Shown here one piece after another: positions 9,301 through 15,391 of a stretch of 20,875 nucleotides of DNA. Position 1 is the first letter of the stretch. Each line of letters begins with the position of its first letter. The notes beneath the pieces were generated by a model that saw nothing but the letters and a program-made list of their open reading frames with translations, was not told the origin of the DNA and ran no database searches. The position numbers were made by a program, and so were the translations under genes. Source of the DNA: a virus. Its lineage: Duplodnaviria > Heunggongvirae > Uroviricota > Caudoviricetes. The stretch lies in IMG/VR virus record IMGVR_UViG_2703718798_000003, one strand, 5' to 3'.

Positions 9301-11735
9301 AGACCACGACGAACCATTTCACCCTCGAGTGTTTCCCCCTGGCGACCAGCGGCGTTTTCCGGTGCCGGAGCTTGTCCTTTCTGGAAACTCTGGCCCTTAA
9401 CCTCACCGGTTGTGGTAAAACGACCACCACGTCCGGCCTGATTCTCATCCGGCGTACGCGCCACCTCTCCCGGTAACGGATATCCCTGTCCGGGATGAAT
9501 ATCGCCGGGAGCGGGCAGGCGTGGACGCTCAGTTAACTCCTGTGCTGTCGGACCGGCATCACCTTCAGCCATCTGTGAACGTACAAGCTCCTCTGCCGTC
9601 GGCGCGTTGCCACGGGCAAGGCGGGCCTGTACCTCCGTATCATCCCCCGTGAAACCACGGAATCGCGGGTCACGCATGAACGCGGGCTGCTCCATCGGGT
9701 CAGCATCAGCAATACGCTCTCCGTCAGCCAGGGTGTTAATGGTTTCCGTTGCCACATCTTCAGAGAACGCAGGATTATCCATTTCAACGGCATATTGATT
9801 CTCGCCTTTCTTCACTACGGACGGTTTCAGGCCGGTGGCGGCGGCATTACGGAAAACATCACTCCCCATGGCGCTTTTCTCATCCGTGAAATAACGGTTG
9901 TCCGGGCGCACCTTTTCAATGCGTTCCGCTGGTCTGGACGCACCATTCCCGTTAATTTCAATGCGGACTTCATTCGGGTCCCGGAACCGCACCGTCGGGT
10001 AAATGCTCCCGTTACCATCCTCCGCATTTTCAGGCTGTGACTGTGCTTCCGGCGTCACTTCCTGTTGTGGGCGAATGACTTCTCGTATTGCCTGAAACTG
10101 TTGTTCTTCAGTCTCGGTGCGCTCCTCTTTCTGGCTGAGTCTGCGGTATTCCTCAAGCAGTTCAGAACGCGGCTTCGCCTTCAGCTCATTCATCACAGCC
10201 TGTCGCTTCGCCTGTTCGTCCAGTTCATTCAACAACTGGCTGGCAGCTTCCCGGCGATGAGCTGCGGATACGTCACCCTCTGTTGCCATATCCGCATCAG
10301 CATACTGCTCCAGAAGCTGCTCGCGATTCATGCCCTGCATGGATTCACGCTGCTGCGCCACCGGATCAACAGATTCTGGTTGCGGGGCTGCGTCGTCCTG
10401 CTGCACGGTTTCAGCATCACGCATGGCGGTTTCTTCTGCGGCCTGACGTCTGCCACGATATCCGGCAACCGCACCGGATGGAGCCCCCATCGCAGCACCA
10501 AAGGCTGCACCTTCGATCGTTGCGTCAGCCACGCCCTCCCACGGTGACACATCCATTCCGGCGGTCTCACGCAATGCCGTGTTTTCCTGATAGCGTGAAT
10601 AGCCGCCCTGCGCCGCATTAATCGCCCCCTGTTCCGTGGCATTTCTGACAATGCCGCTTTTAACGGTCTTCGCTGTGCCTCGTGTCACCAGATTAAACAG
10701 TTGTGCGTCACCCAGTTTTGCCGCCATGGCATTCACAGCCAGCAATTCAGGATCGGTTGCCAGCTGCGCGCGCACCTCATCGGCAACACGCTCTTTTGCC
10801 AGATCCATTTTCTGGCGATCAGTAAGCTGTGCGTGCTGCGGGTCGGCGTCAATGGACAAAAACGTCTGCTGAAATTTCGGTGACTGCGCCAGCTCAGAGT
10901 AATCCGCATTAAGAACAGCATCTGCTGCCGCCATTGCACTCTGCCCCTGTGCACTGGCTGTGGAATGGGTGATCAGGCCCGCCTGGAATAAATCCGGCAT
11001 TTTTTTATCGACAGCTTCTGCTGCCAGTGCCGTGGCTCTTTCCGGCTGCATCCCTGCCGCGATGTATTTTTTCTCCAGCCCGGCGGTCAGCATTTTTCGC
11101 AGTGTGACATCACCCACCTTTTTAGCCACACCGCCAGCAACCATATCAGGTACAAGCGCACCAATCAGGTTTACACCCTTCGCCACCCAGACCGCAGAAT
11201 CATCATAGCCTTCGGTCATCGGCGTATTCAGCGCACGAACAGCACCCGGCGACATCTTACCGGTCAGCCATTCATCAGTGGCTTCAGCACCATCACTGAC
11301 AGCCTTACCGGTTGCCTTCAGACCTTTACCGACAGTATCAGTAACCGCGTTTTTGCCATCAGGCAGGGTATCGATGACCTCATCAGCCCCCCTGCTGCCA
11401 CCGGCAAAAATATCCTGCACAGTTGCGACACCCGGCAGCCCCATACGGCTGAACTCATTTAAAATACGCGCCCCTGTTTTTACCGGGCTTTGAATCATCG
11501 CATCACCGAGTCCACGGGCCATTTCCCCTGTTCCCCGGACGGACTGGGCGAAACCTTTACCCATTGTTGGCAATACATCGCCCAGGCTGAACGACGTACT
11601 GTTATCCTTCCAGCGATTCGGATCAGAGAAAAATGCTTCATAGCTGTCAGTTTCGCCGGGTTGCTGAATGTTCAGGCTGTTACGATTCTGGTTACCGAGT
11701 TGCGCCTCAGGACGCTGTTCCTCTGAATAGGCCAT
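3345..11735 (-). CDS. Giant 2,796 aa protein with two HExxH (zincin-like) motifs; possible polyvalent / virion-internal protein, function unknown
   Basis: Uninterrupted minus-strand ORF. Start placed at ATG 11733-11735 (MAYSEEQ, GGAG SD 5 nt upstream); the longer frame to 11774 overlaps a terminator hairpin. HEWFH encoded at 7872-7886 and HEIIH at 7071-7085; Pro/Glu-rich low-complexity linker with GLP(S/A)PD-like repeats; Gly/Ala-rich N-terminus. No Walker A or hemagglutinin/YD repeats noticed. Confidence 0.85.
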   Translation of the reverse strand: MAYSEEQRPEAQLGNQNRNSLNIQQPGETDSYEAFFSDPNRWKDNSTSFSLGDVLPTMGKGFAQSVRGTGEMARGLGDAMIQSPVKTGARILNEFSRMGLPGVATVQDIFAGGSRGADEVIDTLPDGKNAVTDTVGKGLKATGKAVSDGAEATDEWLTGKMSPGAVRALNTPMTEGYDDSAVWVAKGVNLIGALVPDMVAGGVAKKVGDVTLRKMLTAGLEKKYIAAGMQPERATALAAEAVDKKMPDLFQAGLITHSTASAQGQSAMAAADAVLNADYSELAQSPKFQQTFLSIDADPQHAQLTDRQKMDLAKERVADEVRAQLATDPELLAVNAMAAKLGDAQLFNLVTRGTAKTVKSGIVRNATEQGAINAAQGGYSRYQENTALRETAGMDVSPWEGVADATIEGAAFGAAMGAPSGAVAGYRGRRQAAEETAMRDAETVQQDDAAPQPESVDPVAQQRESMQGMNREQLLEQYADADMATEGDVSAAHRREAASQLLNELDEQAKRQAVMNELKAKPRSELLEEYRRLSQKEERTETEEQQFQAIREVIRPQQEVTPEAQSQPENAEDGNGSIYPTVRFRDPNEVRIEINGNGASRPAERIEKVRPDNRYFTDEKSAMGSDVFRNAAATGLKPSVVKKGENQYAVEMDNPAFSEDVATETINTLADGERIADADPMEQPAFMRDPRFRGFTGDDTEVQARLARGNAPTAEELVRSQMAEGDAGPTAQELTERPRLPAPGDIHPGQGYPLPGEVARTPDENQAGRGGRFTTTGEVKGQSFQKGQAPAPENAAGRQGETLEGEMVRRGLPSPDAQNATAPVREGLPAPDIARNVRMPQPESLPRTVRDSLPELAQQAEVRRQAGGNRDIPQPETIAPESETTVSTDREATVRGGEVRGKKIEDFGEEIKGAAKHRYAQLAETLGKTLEDRDYATQPLSKLFPKPDYAKLANEGADADTLAMIALYRSDIPAKTKHNTAGWGESIKKVRHSVSEMLNGTVSAKRLAEWMEGRMPSRYADTWQLLRTLPPSQMDRASAYRVVSGVYQAAGGKRYDPPQKLYSLRNKDNKGSNLFFSESRDELLAKAKVWFAEQEEKSQAKGDEKTAPSPDDKIRFDVYRNTRSGDIFIAYGKNKMRVRGGFKSASDARKYIDSHRDELVRHVKEMREISREEQRNATNRDRTGPERRKGNVSPEQFSDAFGFRGVQFGNYVEGPRRQADLNRAYDSLHDLAEVLNVPTKALSLNGRLGLAFGARGKGKAAAHYEPGEVAINLTKGNGPGALAHEWFHSLDNYFGRYDVSNDGKITSGGDFMTEAQRVRRIFKDGRYVDAEYPVRQEVYDAFKGVIQAIKNSDMPRRSALLDEVRSKPYWSTDVEMAARAFERYVQDKARMAGVENDYLVNIRKAPEHNTDNTWAYPTNAELDGGIRDAFDHLFSTLKTRETDKGVAFYSRKGVTRTPEGNLISDVNRSAEAKGSPVPQVEAVVRGVMSGIKDSDLKVRVVKSQKEAEALAGELFDGYGRVHAFYRPDKREIVLVADNIPDGRTVREKLRHEIIHHAMEHVVTPAEYQTIIKTVLKTRDSDNATIREAWRKVDASYGKESPEVQAGEFLAHMAEKQPNKFVAAWERVVALVKGVLRRTGLLKPTELNDIRLVRETIRTLGQRVREGYTPREDGVGASSQYSRSGKPDPFKADAYDAKQFASEVRRIAGLQSVSRREMLRVGDTPRVLRALGAPDLELVMPASVVHKATRPEIREHFVSVETLADLPQLLTDPVVVMRSKTESDALVSLIQATDTKGNPVIVAIHTHVKGDGFAEINKIASAYGKDKRSALQDQLDTSLLYLNKEKAAEWLHAVGLQLPEANTINGSSGFKILHPEDIRKGPYYSRTSSLTPEDTIASRFVRQMQDKFQVLKAVQENIRKTGGKIDDSNNAYMAEELFHGKAENDLNVMKERYVQPLAKLLADYKIAQADLDEYLYARHAPERNAHIAKINPKMPDGGSGMTNAEAAEIMQRVRNSGKQAQYDRLAGIVDDMLARRRELIREAGLEESGVVDAWQNAYRYYVPLKGQDVDGVVSLPRTGKGFTIGGRESRQAMGRASRAQSPSTQAIQDLSESLIRHRKNEVGNAFLKLVQDNPDKDYWQVFTDDRPDTMRVIAERKDQETGETIREVVERPVAMAMMADRYFTTKKNGKTYYIKLHDPRLMRAMKNMGPETSNAVIRTLGKVNRFLATVNTSYNPEFLVSNFIRDVQTAVMNLKAEQGRSDGKLKGLDNLSALAVVKDSRSAMSAVYASLRGKTLTGKGTQWQKVWKEFVEDGGKTGWFNMGDLEGQQKEMDRLVSLAKGGWKGQSIGAWNSFLNLVEDANGAVENALRLSAYKHARDAGLSRQQAASLAKNMTVNFNRRGEQGALMNSLYMFANASIQGTANLVRTLGHLNGEGPLLERLRWKNLNVPQKIALAAVGAGYLLGSLNRSVAGEDDDGVNWYDKVPSHVKERNLVIMKSVFGGKAGEYWSIPLPYGYNVFFLLGHTAEGVAAGDLTASRAAGNVVGGVLGAFSPIGSETSETLSGALLKNAAPTILRPFANLAMNENFMGAQIYQENMPFGTPKPDSQLGRRSTPEAYKAFASWLNAFSGGSQYRPGAVDITPESLKYWVDYISGGTGRFISKTTDAAVKSLNGIDIPEQQVPFLGKISGEVMPYADQQKMYDRMTEVAQYHAELKSLTGAERTAFIDENNGKLSMNGLMQDTRKRLKDLRKQCDAIYADSTLSLAQQSAMVKSVERDMKIAVDRFNREYNKKVGVE

Positions 11736-11744
11736 ACAGACTCC

Positions 11745-11772
11745 ATAAAAAAACCCGGCACAATGGCCGGGC
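11745..11772 (-). terminator. Rho-independent terminator between the 421 aa gene and the giant ORF
   Basis: Minus strand: CCCGGC-CATTGT-GCCGGG followed by TTTTTTTA, ~35 nt after stop 11805-11807 and immediately before the giant ORF SD/start. Confidence 0.6.
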
Positions 11773-11804
11773 ATCAGGAAATGGTGTTAATGGAATATCG
11801 TGAA

Positions 11805-14562: not shown

Positions 14563-14940
14563 TCAGACCGCTATCCTGAACACCATGAAGCCATCCTCAT
14601 CATCCGGCATTCGCTCAAAGCCCAGACGTTTTCCCAGCCGGATAAATCCCCGCCTTGCCGTATGAAATTCAGCCCAACGTCCGCCAGCCAGACGGGTTAA
14701 TGTCTTCACCTCCGGCAGATAACGCTCAACGCTGTTACTCCCCGTACACACGCCCAGCAACACCAGAACATAAGGGATACCATCAGCACTGAGCACAGAA
14801 CGCAGCACCAGAAAGCCATCAGGTGCCTCAAAACAAAACGCCTGCTTTTTAAGGCAGGCGTCTTTAACTTCATTCATAAATTCAGGGTTGCGGGAATTTC
14901 TCACCACACGCTGCATATACCGGAGAATTTTATCGTTCAT
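14563..14940 (-). CDS. Hypothetical protein (~125 aa)
   Basis: Start placed at ATG 14938-14940 (MNDKILRYMQ, AGGTGA SD 4 nt upstream) rather than 14964. Contains an embedded terminator-like hairpin at ~14839-14860. No family recognised. Confidence 0.55.
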   Translation of the reverse strand: MNDKILRYMQRVVRNSRNPEFMNEVKDACLKKQAFCFEAPDGFLVLRSVLSADGIPYVLVLLGVCTGSNSVERYLPEVKTLTRLAGGRWAEFHTARRGFIRLGKRLGFERMPDDEDGFMVFRIAV

Positions 14941-15020
14941 TCTCTCACCTGAAACGGGTGCCATATCGGCTGAACCTCAGCAACCAGTTGACGGGGACTT
15001 TCGTCCCCGTCGCGGTTTTC

Positions 15021-15161
15021 CTACTGCTTACACTGTAAGAACGCCGCAAACTCCGCTCCCCACAAATTCAGCCGGAACTCACACAGCGAACCGTGCAACA
15101 TCCAGATAGTGAAGATAACCGTCATACAAATTGTGACGGTGATAAGCGATTTTTGCGACAT
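15021..15161 (-). CDS. hok: Hok/Gef-family type I toxin (46 aa)
   Basis: Translation MSQKSLITVTICMTVIFTIWMLHGSLCEFRLNLWGAEFAAFLQCKQ shares the Hok signature (N-terminal TM helix, SLCE...R, E(V/F)AAFL...CK) with recalled HokA/Gef sequences. Perfect AGGAGG SD 9 nt upstream. Stem-loop GACGGGGAC-GAAA-GTCCCCGTC 10 nt after the stop (14990-15011). Confidence 0.8.
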   Translation of the reverse strand: MSQKSLITVTICMTVIFTIWMLHGSLCEFRLNLWGAEFAAFLQCKQ

Positions 15162-15330
15162 AGCGCTTGCCTCCTGAGTGGAGAGGCGCTAACCTTCTAC
15201 TTGTCAAGGTACAAAGTGTTAGGGCCTCGGGTTAACGTTAAGTTGACTCGGGGCCTTTCCACATCAGGCCTTCAGGTTCACCCTCCAGCCATCAGCCGAA
15301 AGGCACCCACGCATAATTTACGGTTTTTGC
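15162..15330. promoter_or_regulatory. Putative hok mRNA leader and antisense (sok-like) RNA region
   Basis: Inferred from hok/sok architecture (antisense RNA encoded opposite the leader upstream of hok). Contains a 10 bp palindrome TTAACGTTAA at ~15233-15242. Exact promoters and antisense RNA ends could not be defined by eye. Confidence 0.3.
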
Positions 15331-15340
15331 CCTGTACGGG

Positions 15341-15367
15341 CAATAAAAAACCCGCCATCACAGCGGG
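15341..15367 (-). terminator. Rho-independent terminator downstream of the Ail/Lom-like gene
   Basis: Minus strand: CCCGC-TGTGATG-GCGGG followed by TTTTTTATTG, 25 nt after stop 15392-15394; a second hairpin GCCCGTACAGGGC follows. Confidence 0.6.
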
Positions 15368-15391
15368 TAGTAAACGGTTACCGGATACAGG

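Follow-up and report, generated by a model that had tools for sequence, protein, structure and literature searches.

A short minus-strand locus in a 933W-like Stx prophage is, at a probability that we put at roughly 85%, a self-contained type I toxin–antitoxin cassette of the hok/Sok family, about 390 bp long (positions 15343–14956) and carried there as a moron. Our window, the whole 20,875-nucleotide stretch of DNA that was analysed, is of a 933W-like Stx phage, and the locus lies in it between lom (ORF 15392–16126; Pfam Ail_Lom, 111 bits) and the next gene. In this explanation, to which the same probability applies as a whole, the Hok/Gef peptide and the hok-type mRNA architecture come from the analyses below, and the transcripts, their processing and the action of Sok are taken to follow the R1 and hokW systems. 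The gene itself is already known, both from NCBI pipeline annotation (the RefSeq entry for the identical locus, WP_000078907.1, reads 'Hok/Gef family protein') and from a catalogue entry in Hok cluster 72, and the finding is ordinary to that extent. Since the identical peptide has already been in a toxicity test and an annotation exists, the sole unusual point is the apparent absence of the usual mok leader frame. In many phage records, the original 933W and VT2-Sakai entries among them, the locus still has no annotation or goes under the name "MokW-like".

The first-pass annotation, made from the DNA alone, had proposed a 46-codon Hok gene on the minus strand, and this proposal held. The hok coding sequence (15021–15161, minus strand) begins with ATG, ends with TAG after 46 codons and encodes the 46-residue peptide MSQKSLITVTICMTVIFTIWMLHGSLCEFRLNLWGAEFAAFLQCKQ; the perfect AGGAGG Shine–Dalgarno (SD) sequence claimed for it is indeed present at 15175–15170, 8 nt before the ATG. 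Assignment of the peptide to the Hok family was upheld by the RefSeq name and by Pfam HOK_GEF (PF01848), which scores 33.2 bits against a gathering cut-off of 22 (E = 4e-08) and aligns residues 8–44 with profile positions 6–42 of 42. Hydropathy peaks over residues 5–22, as for a single helix, and the L-C-E motif is present: S25-L26-C27-E28 ranges from conserved to invariant among 30 relatives, with both C27 and C44 invariant. All 25 diverged copies, with protein identities as low as 59%, have an unbroken reading frame of 46–47 codons. Among the named Hok subfamilies, HokA of E. coli K-12 (NCBIfam NF007290) gives the highest score and likewise has the pattern ...W M... S L C E ... A A F L. C K, but the score of 38.4 bits falls short of the equivalog cut-off of 89, indicating that the peptide is related to HokA rather than orthologous to it; HokA sits in a separate 60% cluster, 93.

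The identical peptide is member 72_1589 of Hok cluster 72, a 'high-abundance cluster' in the work of Escalera-Maurer et al. (bioRxiv 10.1101/2025.08.07.668861), and according to that preprint it was cloned as LRP157 and was among 45 homologues tested for toxicity. The preprint reports that 42 of the 45 were toxic and names three non-toxic peptides, all of them others than 72_1589; on that basis the peptide is reported to be toxic to E. coli on overexpression. Prophages are also reported there to be enriched in hok, and the study deals with the coding sequence only, leaving Mok, Sok and mRNA ends outside its scope.

Homology marks out the cassette sharply. The homologue set comprised 25 loci drawn from an E. 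coli collection and from exact-protein look-ups; a scan of genome contigs yielded only 7 loci, 3 of them in implausible hosts. Diverged copies (75–82% identity) align only with window positions 15328–14956, and homology is lost outside these borders. About a third of complete E. coli genomes carry the cassette, and copies occur in lambdoid prophages, at the ends of P2-like prophages, on a plasmid, in Salmonella and at non-prophage chromosomal sites. The cassette moves as a unit among prophage types, plasmids and species. Upstream, a terminator-like site directly after the lom stop codon (15350–15368, minus strand; 8 pairs and a TTTTTTATT tail) serves as the lom terminator; it lies outside the cassette and insulates the hok promoter.

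The predicted hok promoter (15315–15343, minus strand) consists of a −35 hexamer TTGCCC (15343–15338), a 17-nt spacer and a −10 hexamer TAAATT (15320–15315), and transcription would start at the G at 15308. Homologues in otherwise unrelated surroundings have the pattern TTGnnn, 17/18 nt, TAnAnT at the matching site, which is also precisely where homology sets in. A simple sigma-70 consensus scan of 14800–15500 found no promoter, this one reaching 8 of 12 matches against a threshold of 9; our promoter calls rest on conservation and on analogy with sokW. From the putative start, a full-length hok mRNA unit of 353 nt (14956–15308, minus strand) would run from the 5′ element tac to the end of the 3′ element fbi, as judged from the homology borders and the fold. 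We found no conserved terminator after fbi, its presence there depending on the genomic context; the next terminator-like site on the hok strand of the window lies 100 nt beyond fbi, within the next ORF.

This unit has the fold expected of a hok mRNA. The 359-nt RNA 15308–14950 reaches −150.6 kcal/mol (z = −6.0; none of 100 shuffles was as stable), and its minimum-energy fold joins the 5′ and 3′ ends. RNAalifold on the 25 loci recovered the tac/fbi helix, the ucb stem, the SD hairpin and the 3′ hairpin, with double changes in 14 pairs. The consensus structure is 95.6% paired across the homologues, compared with about 41% when partners are slid. The named structure holds 84 double-change cells as against 28.6 in shuffles, a covariation for which two clades, one of E. 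coli type and one of Salmonella type, largely account, and which hence reflects few events. The alternative helices tac/ucb and GAGGC/GCCUC reach 96.8% pairing, and their compensatory changes fall on the same positions of tac.

At the 5′ end, tac (15292–15308, minus strand; GGGUGCCUUUCGGCUGA) pairs in the minimum-energy fold with the complementary fbi (14956–14973, minus strand; UCAGCCGAUAUGGCACCC), right after whose GGCACCC homology between differing genomic contexts stops. Positions 1–9 of tac are invariant in the 25 sequences, positions 10–12 covary with fbi in 11–12 sequences, and positions 10–11 covary with ucb in 10. Both tac/fbi helices (alignment columns 1–7/376–382 and 10–12/370–372) are about 99% paired, and in the second all three pairs show double changes in 11–12 sequences. 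The ucb-like box (15250–15260, minus strand; GGAAAGGCCCC) is the partner of tac in nascent and truncated folds, a pairing that is 96.4% maintained, with UA-to-CG and CG-to-GC exchanges in 10 sequences. In the full-length RNA, GGCC of this box instead pairs with the GAGGCC box, a stem with a GC-to-AU exchange in 6 sequences. The GAGGC box (15224–15228, minus strand), nearly invariant among the 25 homologues, occupies the position of the mok SD in R1 and hokW and aligns with the mokW SD region, but lacks a conserved start codon downstream; its alternative partner is GCCUC at 15187–15183. The hok start lies in a hairpin (15161–15191, minus strand; UAGCGCCUCUCC/GGAGGCAAGCGCUA; −15.0 kcal/mol) that buries the SD and the A of the AUG; its outer stem is 99.3% paired across homologues, and the probability of the SD being unpaired is 0.00–0.02 in nearly all full-length folds.

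The GC-rich stem-loop of 9 bp that the first-pass annotation had placed downstream of hok is there (14990–15011, minus strand; GACGGGGAC/GUCCCCGUC; −19.7 kcal/mol, z = −5.1), at 9 nt from the stop codon and not the 10 nt given. It is 99.1% paired, with compensatory changes in 5 of its 9 pairs, and a terminator scan flags it as a 10-pair stem at 14989–15012. Its reading as the 3′ terminal structure stands in part: the stem-loop exists, but it is not the end of the unit, as homology and the predicted fold run on to 14956. As an intrinsic hok terminator it was rejected, given that the hok strand carries no U-tail and that homology and structure continue for 34 nt to fbi. By analogy with R1, where mutating the last stem-loop of the truncated mRNA abolishes toxicity (PMC9841398), it is probably the protective end of a processed, active mRNA.

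A covariance-model search for hok/sok elements, suggested as a check on the locus, gave a qualified answer. The Rfam 'sok' model RF01794 matches 15150–15308 on the hok strand at 40.1 bits over its full length (model positions 1–157; E = 2.4e-07 when 1 kb is searched and 4.9e-06 for the whole window), but this score is below the gathering score of 59. At the gathering threshold Rfam reports no match in the window, and the match is visible in E-value mode only. Five cluster relatives score 42.8–51.1 bits and an annotated hokW/sokW control scores 113.5 bits; in the control the score lies on the strand of hokW, opposite to the annotated sokW, which shows RF01794 to be in practice a model of the hok leader in hok-sense orientation. 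Rfam at its gathering threshold overlooks the cluster 72 subfamily in the window and in all five relatives examined.

An antisense Sok RNA with its own promoter within the leader is probable, judging by homology with sokW. The earlier expectation of a plus-strand antisense RNA at about 15165–15300 fits our prediction, as both the putative promoter and the RNA fall there. The predicted Sok promoter (15167–15195, plus strand) has a −35 hexamer TTGCCT (15167–15172), a 17-nt spacer and a −10 hexamer TAACCT (15190–15195), and overlaps the hok SD hairpin on the opposite strand. Its pattern has one match in the window, with 0 expected by chance; AGGTTA (AGGATA in 4 sequences) and CAAG/AAAG on the hok strand, corresponding to both Sok hexamers, are conserved in 25 of 25 homologues; and the hokW locus has the same TAACCT, 6 nt upstream of the annotated sokW 5′ end. 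In the consensus scan the promoter remained below threshold, its −10 hexamer fitting 3 of 6 consensus positions. The predicted Sok RNA of about 56 nt (15203–15258, plus strand), with ends placed to within a few nucleotides, would comprise an 18-nt single-stranded 5′ tail, a 16-bp hairpin and then UUU(CC). It folds at −26.5 kcal/mol (z = −5.2) into the tail-plus-hairpin layout of SokW, and in position and shape parallels the sokW misc_RNA of AF125520.

By the R1 and hokW paradigms, a stable full-length mRNA would be made from about 15308 and would be translationally inert, since the tac/fbi pairing is expected to lock its fold. Slow 3′ trimming back to the hairpin 15011–14990 would strip fbi, upon which tac would switch to ucb and the RNA would open to both ribosomes and Sok. 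Sok, as a short-lived antisense RNA of about 56 nt made on the plus strand (about 15203–15258) from a promoter inside the leader, would pair with the leader, block activation and trigger cleavage of the duplex. Once the supply of Sok ends, Hok would be made, insert into the inner membrane and depolarise or kill the cell. In the locked RNA the GAGGCC box would have ucb as its partner, and after processing GCGCCUC; conceivably, the freed box thereby sequesters this anti-SD and releases the hok SD, with Sok acting as a mask on GAGGCC.

These features can be set against two well-studied relatives. The R1 hok/mok/sok (parB) system shares the small Hok/Gef membrane peptide; a highly folded mRNA that tac/fbi closes and in which tac can pair with ucb instead, with the SD buried and a stem-loop towards the 3′ end, which are predicted folds here; and, likewise predicted here, a short cis-antisense RNA that arises within the leader and has a terminator hairpin behind a single-stranded 5′ tail. 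It differs in that a conserved mok frame is absent here, the peptide has 46 residues and not 52, the RF01794 score lies below the gathering score, and the predicted Sok target lies 28 nt or more upstream of the hok SD and covers no conserved start codon. The hokW-mokW-sokW locus (933W/Sp5; Takada et al. 2021, PMC8621323) comes from the same phage type and has the same order of elements, namely a GGGUGC 5′ end, AAAGCCCC, GAGGC, AGGTTAGC, a 3′ hairpin and GCACCC. The present locus is a second cassette and not hokW-sokW: the hokW primer is absent from the window; hokW maps to 58.46 kb on the minus strand of 933W and the present locus to 45.4–45.9 kb on the plus strand, about 12.5 kb away; and HokW has 51 residues and belongs to the HokD cluster (35_712), unlike the cluster 72 peptide described here. 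The mok of hokW is in frame and 70 codons long, and its Sok measures 71 nt, whereas the present locus has no conserved mok and a predicted Sok of about 56 nt.

We searched the 25 homologues for mok in all three frames, with canonical and near-cognate starts, and found nothing conserved; mokW was recovered from the hokW positive control. A canonical start with a frame reading through the hok AUG is absent in 13 of the 25 and variably placed in the rest, 6 have not even a near-cognate start reading through it, and the closest relative, 933W, lacks a canonical one. About half of the homologues have a three-codon upstream ORF, GUG-xxx-GGU-UAG, which is absent from the window and from 933W. With no conserved mok ORF, the probable target of Sok is ribosome loading, or the refolding or decay of the RNA, rather than mok translation. 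It may be, at somewhat less than even odds in our estimation, that cluster 72 hok cassettes (46 aa) form a widespread subfamily regulated without a mok leader peptide, with GAGGCC as an RNA switch only. On the same tentative footing, Sok would keep Hok in check by covering the switch and through RNase III cleavage, rather than by stopping an upstream ORF from being translated. In silico, the SD had a mean accessibility of 0.018 in the full-length RNA, 0.085 in the truncated RNA and 0.018 when the Sok site of the truncated RNA was masked; the shift, from about 0.02 to about 0.09, goes the expected way but is very small, lending weak support to a mok-free thermodynamic switch. A possible analogy for Sok control of a structured hok start without a leader ORF is tisB/istR-1, in which ribosomes are kept by the antisense RNA from a standby site situated well ahead of a structured translation start; neither the toxin nor the sequence of that system is related to those here. 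We found no earlier description of mok-less hok loci in the openly searchable literature.

The classical scheme, in which Sok covers the start of a mok frame and thereby blocks mok and hence hok, as in R1, would need such a frame, and the window does contain one: a TTG at 15207 opens 42 codons (15207–15079) that cross the hok start, the TTG falls within the predicted Sok target 15203–15258, the frame recurs in the plasmid copy L015, and in R1 translation of mok as far as the hok SD is required (PMC9841398). However, this TTG is missing in 23 of the 25 homologues and in 933W, where, at 96.6% identity, TAA takes its place; it sits 16 nt past the GAGGC box and is not preceded by its own SD; and the counts of homologues without a start reading through hok, given above, tell against any such frame. 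We regard the classical scheme as highly unlikely for this cassette. The absence of mok also counts towards a decayed or silent hok relic, in which ORF and fold persist, the promoter or activation is dead and phage and host feel no effect. Judged by consensus, both promoters are weak, Rfam and NCBIfam give scores under their cut-offs, and the hok/sok loci of E. coli K-12 have been described as inactive (PMC1635323). Yet the ORF is intact in every copy despite the divergence noted above; conservation, with compensatory changes, extends to the promoter hexamers, tac, fbi, ucb and the hairpins; elements and species are exchanging the cassette, which is still spreading; and the identical peptide 72_1589 is reported to be toxic. 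A relic is very improbable indeed on this evidence.

Assuming a functional cassette, the candidate roles are prophage stabilisation, help with lysis on induction (shown for hokW) and exclusion of other phages. A cassette of the same parts might mainly be an induction-triggered lysis helper and not a maintenance module, which we consider unlikely, if worth keeping in view. As lom, hok and all flanking structural genes are on one strand and the cassette is oriented as the late genes are, antiterminated late transcription would read through it and collide with Sok transcription. Read-through would then yield a sense RNA without a proper tac 5′ end, with Hok appearing late in the lytic cycle, a detail that we likewise think doubtful. 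When phages of this type are induced, SokW is lost and HokW comes up at their other hok locus, and the yield of phage falls by half if hokW is missing (PMC8621323), but hokW, for which that effect was shown, is on the opposite strand in 933W. Moreover, the copies at P2-like prophage ends, on the plasmid and at non-prophage sites would see no late read-through.

For the self-contained cassette that we favour, the consequences concern both the phage and the toxin family. With the label "MokW-like" in phage records, the locus is easily mistaken for hokW-sokW, which has been studied. Two unrelated hok cassettes can be present in Stx phages of this type, and hence the phenotypes of hokW-only deletions may be buffered. 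The finding as posed adds little, and mok-less regulation is a modest lead. A mok-free subfamily, if real, would offer a natural comparison that separates out the leader-peptide-dependent parts of the classical hok/sok model, and mok-less control, if it holds, would be a second regulatory solution inside the textbook hok/sok family.

The toxin gene beside lom is a minus-strand ORF at 15021..15161 with an ATG start and 46 codons (MSQKSLITVTICMTVIFTIWMLHGSLCEFRLNLWGAEFAAFLQCKQ), preceded by an AGGAGG Shine–Dalgarno (SD) sequence at 15175-15170, 8 nt ahead of the ATG; the ORF list and direct reading of the sequence agree here with the first-pass annotation, and its assignment of the peptide to the Hok family was borne out by Pfam HOK_GEF (33.2 bits, gathering score 22). 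The best NCBIfam model, HokA, fell short of its cut-off (38.4 bits, cut-off 89), hence the peptide is HokA-related without orthologue status. Protein searches returned a tight group of 46-aa peptides from E. coli, Shigella and Salmonella, almost every one of them named Hok/Gef, and M1, Q3, K4, M21, C27, A39 and FLQCK are invariant in the family. Relatives 76–100% identical to the peptide also occur on an 857-bp Xanthomonas pisi contig, a Planococcaceae MAG containing a masked run of N, and a Vagococcus sp. contig (L004, L005 and L007), where they are likely assembly contamination given the non-enterobacterial assignments. RefSeq lists the ORF as ‘Hok/Gef family protein’ (WP_000078907.1) and phage P27 as ‘MokW-like host killing’, and in the original 933W record it is unannotated. 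In a 2025–26 preprint cataloguing Hok diversity (10.1101/2025.08.07.668861), the identical peptide is 72_1589, from a high-abundance 60% cluster, LRP157 being the clone made of it for toxicity testing under arabinose induction; its text puts the number of toxic homologues at 42 of 45 and gives 19_179, 60_1482 and 69_1540 as the only non-toxic ones.

Diverged copies (75–82% identity) in other genomic contexts match the window only across 15328-14956, and alignment homology begins at a −35 hexamer and ends directly after GGCACCC. The predicted hok promoter (minus strand; −35 TTGCCC 15343-15338, 17-nt spacer, −10 TAAATT 15320-15315) lies 6 nt from G15308, with the lom terminator (15368-15350) directly upstream, and homologues keep TTGnnn-17/18-TAnAnT at this site despite differing spacer sequences. 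An antisense RNA had been expected on the plus strand at ~15165-15300. Alignment with the annotated hokW/mokW/sokW locus, together with conserved hexamers and fold, now places a predicted Sok RNA at ~15203-15258, in which a free 5′ tail of 18 nt leads into a 16-bp hairpin followed by UUU (−26.5 kcal/mol, z = −5.2); we infer its ends, and its layout is that of SokW. Its predicted promoter at 15167-15195 (−35 TTGCCT 15167-15172, −10 TAACCT 15190-15195) is the sole match in the window to this hexamer pair with a 17-nt spacer, and an identical TAACCT precedes the annotated 5′ end of sokW by 6 nt. All 25 homologues conserve both hexamers, four of them reading TATCCT at −10. A simple consensus promoter scan flagged neither the predicted hok promoter nor the predicted Sok promoter.

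Searched against Rfam at gathering thresholds, the locus gave no match. In E-value mode, RF01794 (‘sok’) matched 15150-15308 on the minus strand (E = 2.4e-07; 4.9e-06 for the whole window); the covariance-model check proposed for the region thus found the full model, yet at 40.1 bits, short of the gathering score of 59, and five other subfamily loci were likewise sub-threshold (42.8–51.1 bits). A control on the annotated hokW locus scored 113.5 bits on the hokW strand, opposite the annotated sokW, so RF01794 represents the sense strand of the hok leader. At that locus (L019) the model, labelled ‘sok antitoxin’, spans 611-785, running from the 5′ terminus of the mRNA as far as the hok start codon, against a sokW annotation at 665-735, and the Sok strand has no match; because the model covers the hok-sense strand, any match points to the hok leader, and the antitoxin lies on the strand opposite to the one reported.

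The RNA from 15308 to 14950 is predicted to fold at −150.6 kcal/mol (z = −6.0), with its 5′ end, GGGUGCC..CGGCUGA, pairing with UCAGCCG..GGCACCC at 14973-14956; in this predicted fold, the pairing is the tac/fbi closure between mRNA ends typical of hok mRNAs, and a −15 kcal/mol hairpin sequesters the hok SD together with the A of the AUG. Across 25 homologous loci from E. coli, E. albertii, Citrobacter and Salmonella, RNAalifold recovered tac/fbi, the stem of ucb (the internal box that is tac’s alternative partner), the SD hairpin and the 3′ hairpin, with 95.6% of cells paired compared with ~41% when partners were slid, and 84 double-change cells compared with 28.6 ± 6.1 in shuffles. Tac positions 10–12 change jointly with fbi (CG<->UA, GC<->CG, AU<->GC) in 11–12 sequences, and 5 of 9 pairs in the 3′ hairpin are compensatory. 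The tac/ucb helix, which excludes tac/fbi and is predicted for nascent and 3′-truncated RNA, is 96.4% paired, with compensatory changes at the same tac positions. As read from these alignments, three-way covariation of tac, fbi and ucb is the hallmark of the hok folding pathway, summarized for plasmid R1 in PMC9841398; the changes separate essentially two clades and thus represent few independent events.

The 9-bp stem-loop previously noted after the stop codon is present at 15011-14990 (minus strand; stem GACGGGGAC/GUCCCCGUC; −19.7 kcal/mol, z = −5.1; also reported by a terminator scan), at a gap of 9 nt rather than 10. It lacks a U-run on the hok strand. On the opposite strand it is followed by CGGTTT(T)CC, in the window (14989-15012) and in homologues L012 (1818-1843) and L024 (1650-1673), and it therefore scans as a terminator for transcription entering from downstream; an AACCG/CGGUU helix of the hok mRNA can also explain its conservation. 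No conserved terminator was found 3′ of fbi. Moving 3′ from the hok unit, a terminator-like site is first met at 14838-14861, in a strong hairpin that reads this way on both strands (minus-strand tail TTTTGTTTTG) and could terminate the hok transcript or attenuate the gene that follows. It lies within the next ORF (14563-14964, minus strand), a phrog_610 protein of unknown function whose RefSeq start, ATG 14964 (133 aa), overlaps fbi. The phrog_610 alignment begins at residue 9 and spans profile positions 1–124 of 124, and P27 annotates a 125-aa form with an RBS, making ATG 14940 the more likely start. In L024, a Salmonella P2-like prophage end, a full-length STnc540 sRNA match (178 bits; 1808-1989, minus strand) lies ~100 nt downstream of the hok cassette.

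Takada et al. (2021, PMC8621323) showed that hokW-sokW of Sp5 functions as a type I toxin–antitoxin pair and aids phage release; identity of the present locus with it was ruled out. The hokW primer sequence from that study is absent from the window, and 933W carries hokW/mokW/sokW at 58.46–58.73 kb on the minus strand and the present locus at 45.4–45.9 kb on the plus strand, beside lom. By map position and primer search, this is thus a second, distinct hok cassette in the same phage type. HokW has 51 aa (MKQQKAM...VFVDYESEK) rather than 46, and the catalogue places it in the HokD cluster as 35_712 (10.1101/2025.08.07.668861).

The two cassettes also differ in that mok is an in-frame 70-codon extension in hokW, whereas the present subfamily has no conserved mok. 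A leader ATG, GTG or TTG with a frame through the hok AUG is absent in 13/25 loci, and in 6 of the 25 a near-cognate start is likewise absent; where leader starts occur, their positions vary. The same test recovered hokW’s mok. In the window, a TTG at 15207 opens a 42-codon frame; in place of this TTG, 933W (96.6% identity) has TAA. The hok ORF is intact (46–47 codons) in 25/25 diverged loci, and the GAGGC box, the mok SD in hokW and R1, is still conserved. This is an apparent hok subfamily without mok; the literature searched yielded no account of hok loci lacking mok, and the catalogue states that Mok and Sok were not analysed there (10.1101/2025.08.07.668861).

In R1, hok is translated only when ribosomes read the overlapping mok frame as far as the hok SD (PMC9841398). 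Predicted folds suggest a mok-free relay: loss of fbi would free tac to pair with ucb, which would release GAGGCC to pair with GCGCCUC and so loosen the hok SD, and masking the Sok target would reverse this. Mean predicted SD accessibility over the 25 loci rose from 0.018 at full length to 0.085 on truncation and was back at 0.018 in truncated RNA with a masked Sok site; the shift has the right direction and a small size, and we therefore keep the relay as a hypothesis. Separately, about half of the homologues carry a three-codon uORF, GUG-xxx-GGU-UAG (alignment columns ~113–124; window 15200-15189), ending at an invariant UAG just ahead of the anti-SD. It is not conserved, the window and 933W having GUA there; where present, it might open the SD hairpin.

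Over a 501-base stretch around the locus, identity is 100% with chromosomal prophages of Shiga-toxin-producing E. coli, 99.8% with O104:H4 strain prophages and 96.6–99.8% with 933W, VT2-Sakai (Sp5) and many other Stx-converting phages. All neighbours are on the minus strand: lom (Pfam Ail_Lom, 111 bits), the phrog_610 gene, tail-fibre and internal-virion genes, and a 2809-aa ORF (3345-11774) that matches phrog_616 (unknown function) end to end and, locally at residues 2367–2697, weakly resembles a DarB-like antirestriction family (phrog_10089, 95 bits). Of 5426 complete E. coli genomes, 1750 carry the cassette, at most 9 copies in any one. It lies beside lom in Stx phages, past ogr where P2-like prophages end, in a lambdoid prophage with gpJ on one side and a tail-fibre gene on the other, on a plasmid, in the chromosome adjacent to the gene for a type B ribosomal protein L31, and as tandem pairs in Salmonella. 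These tandems (L020 1354-1712 and 1845-2206; L021 1355-1715 and 1855-2206) are diverged whole cassettes ~490 nt apart, adjoining a YafO-type toxin gene in L021.

The cassette behaves as a mobile moron, and the catalogue likewise reports hok enrichment in prophages (10.1101/2025.08.07.668861). The original reading of a Hok/Gef-type locus holds in both observation and interpretation. Elements of this kind are known, protein-level annotation of this one already exists, and toxicity of its peptide has been reported; what is new is the delimitation of its RNA parts, its separation from hokW-sokW and the apparent absence of mok.
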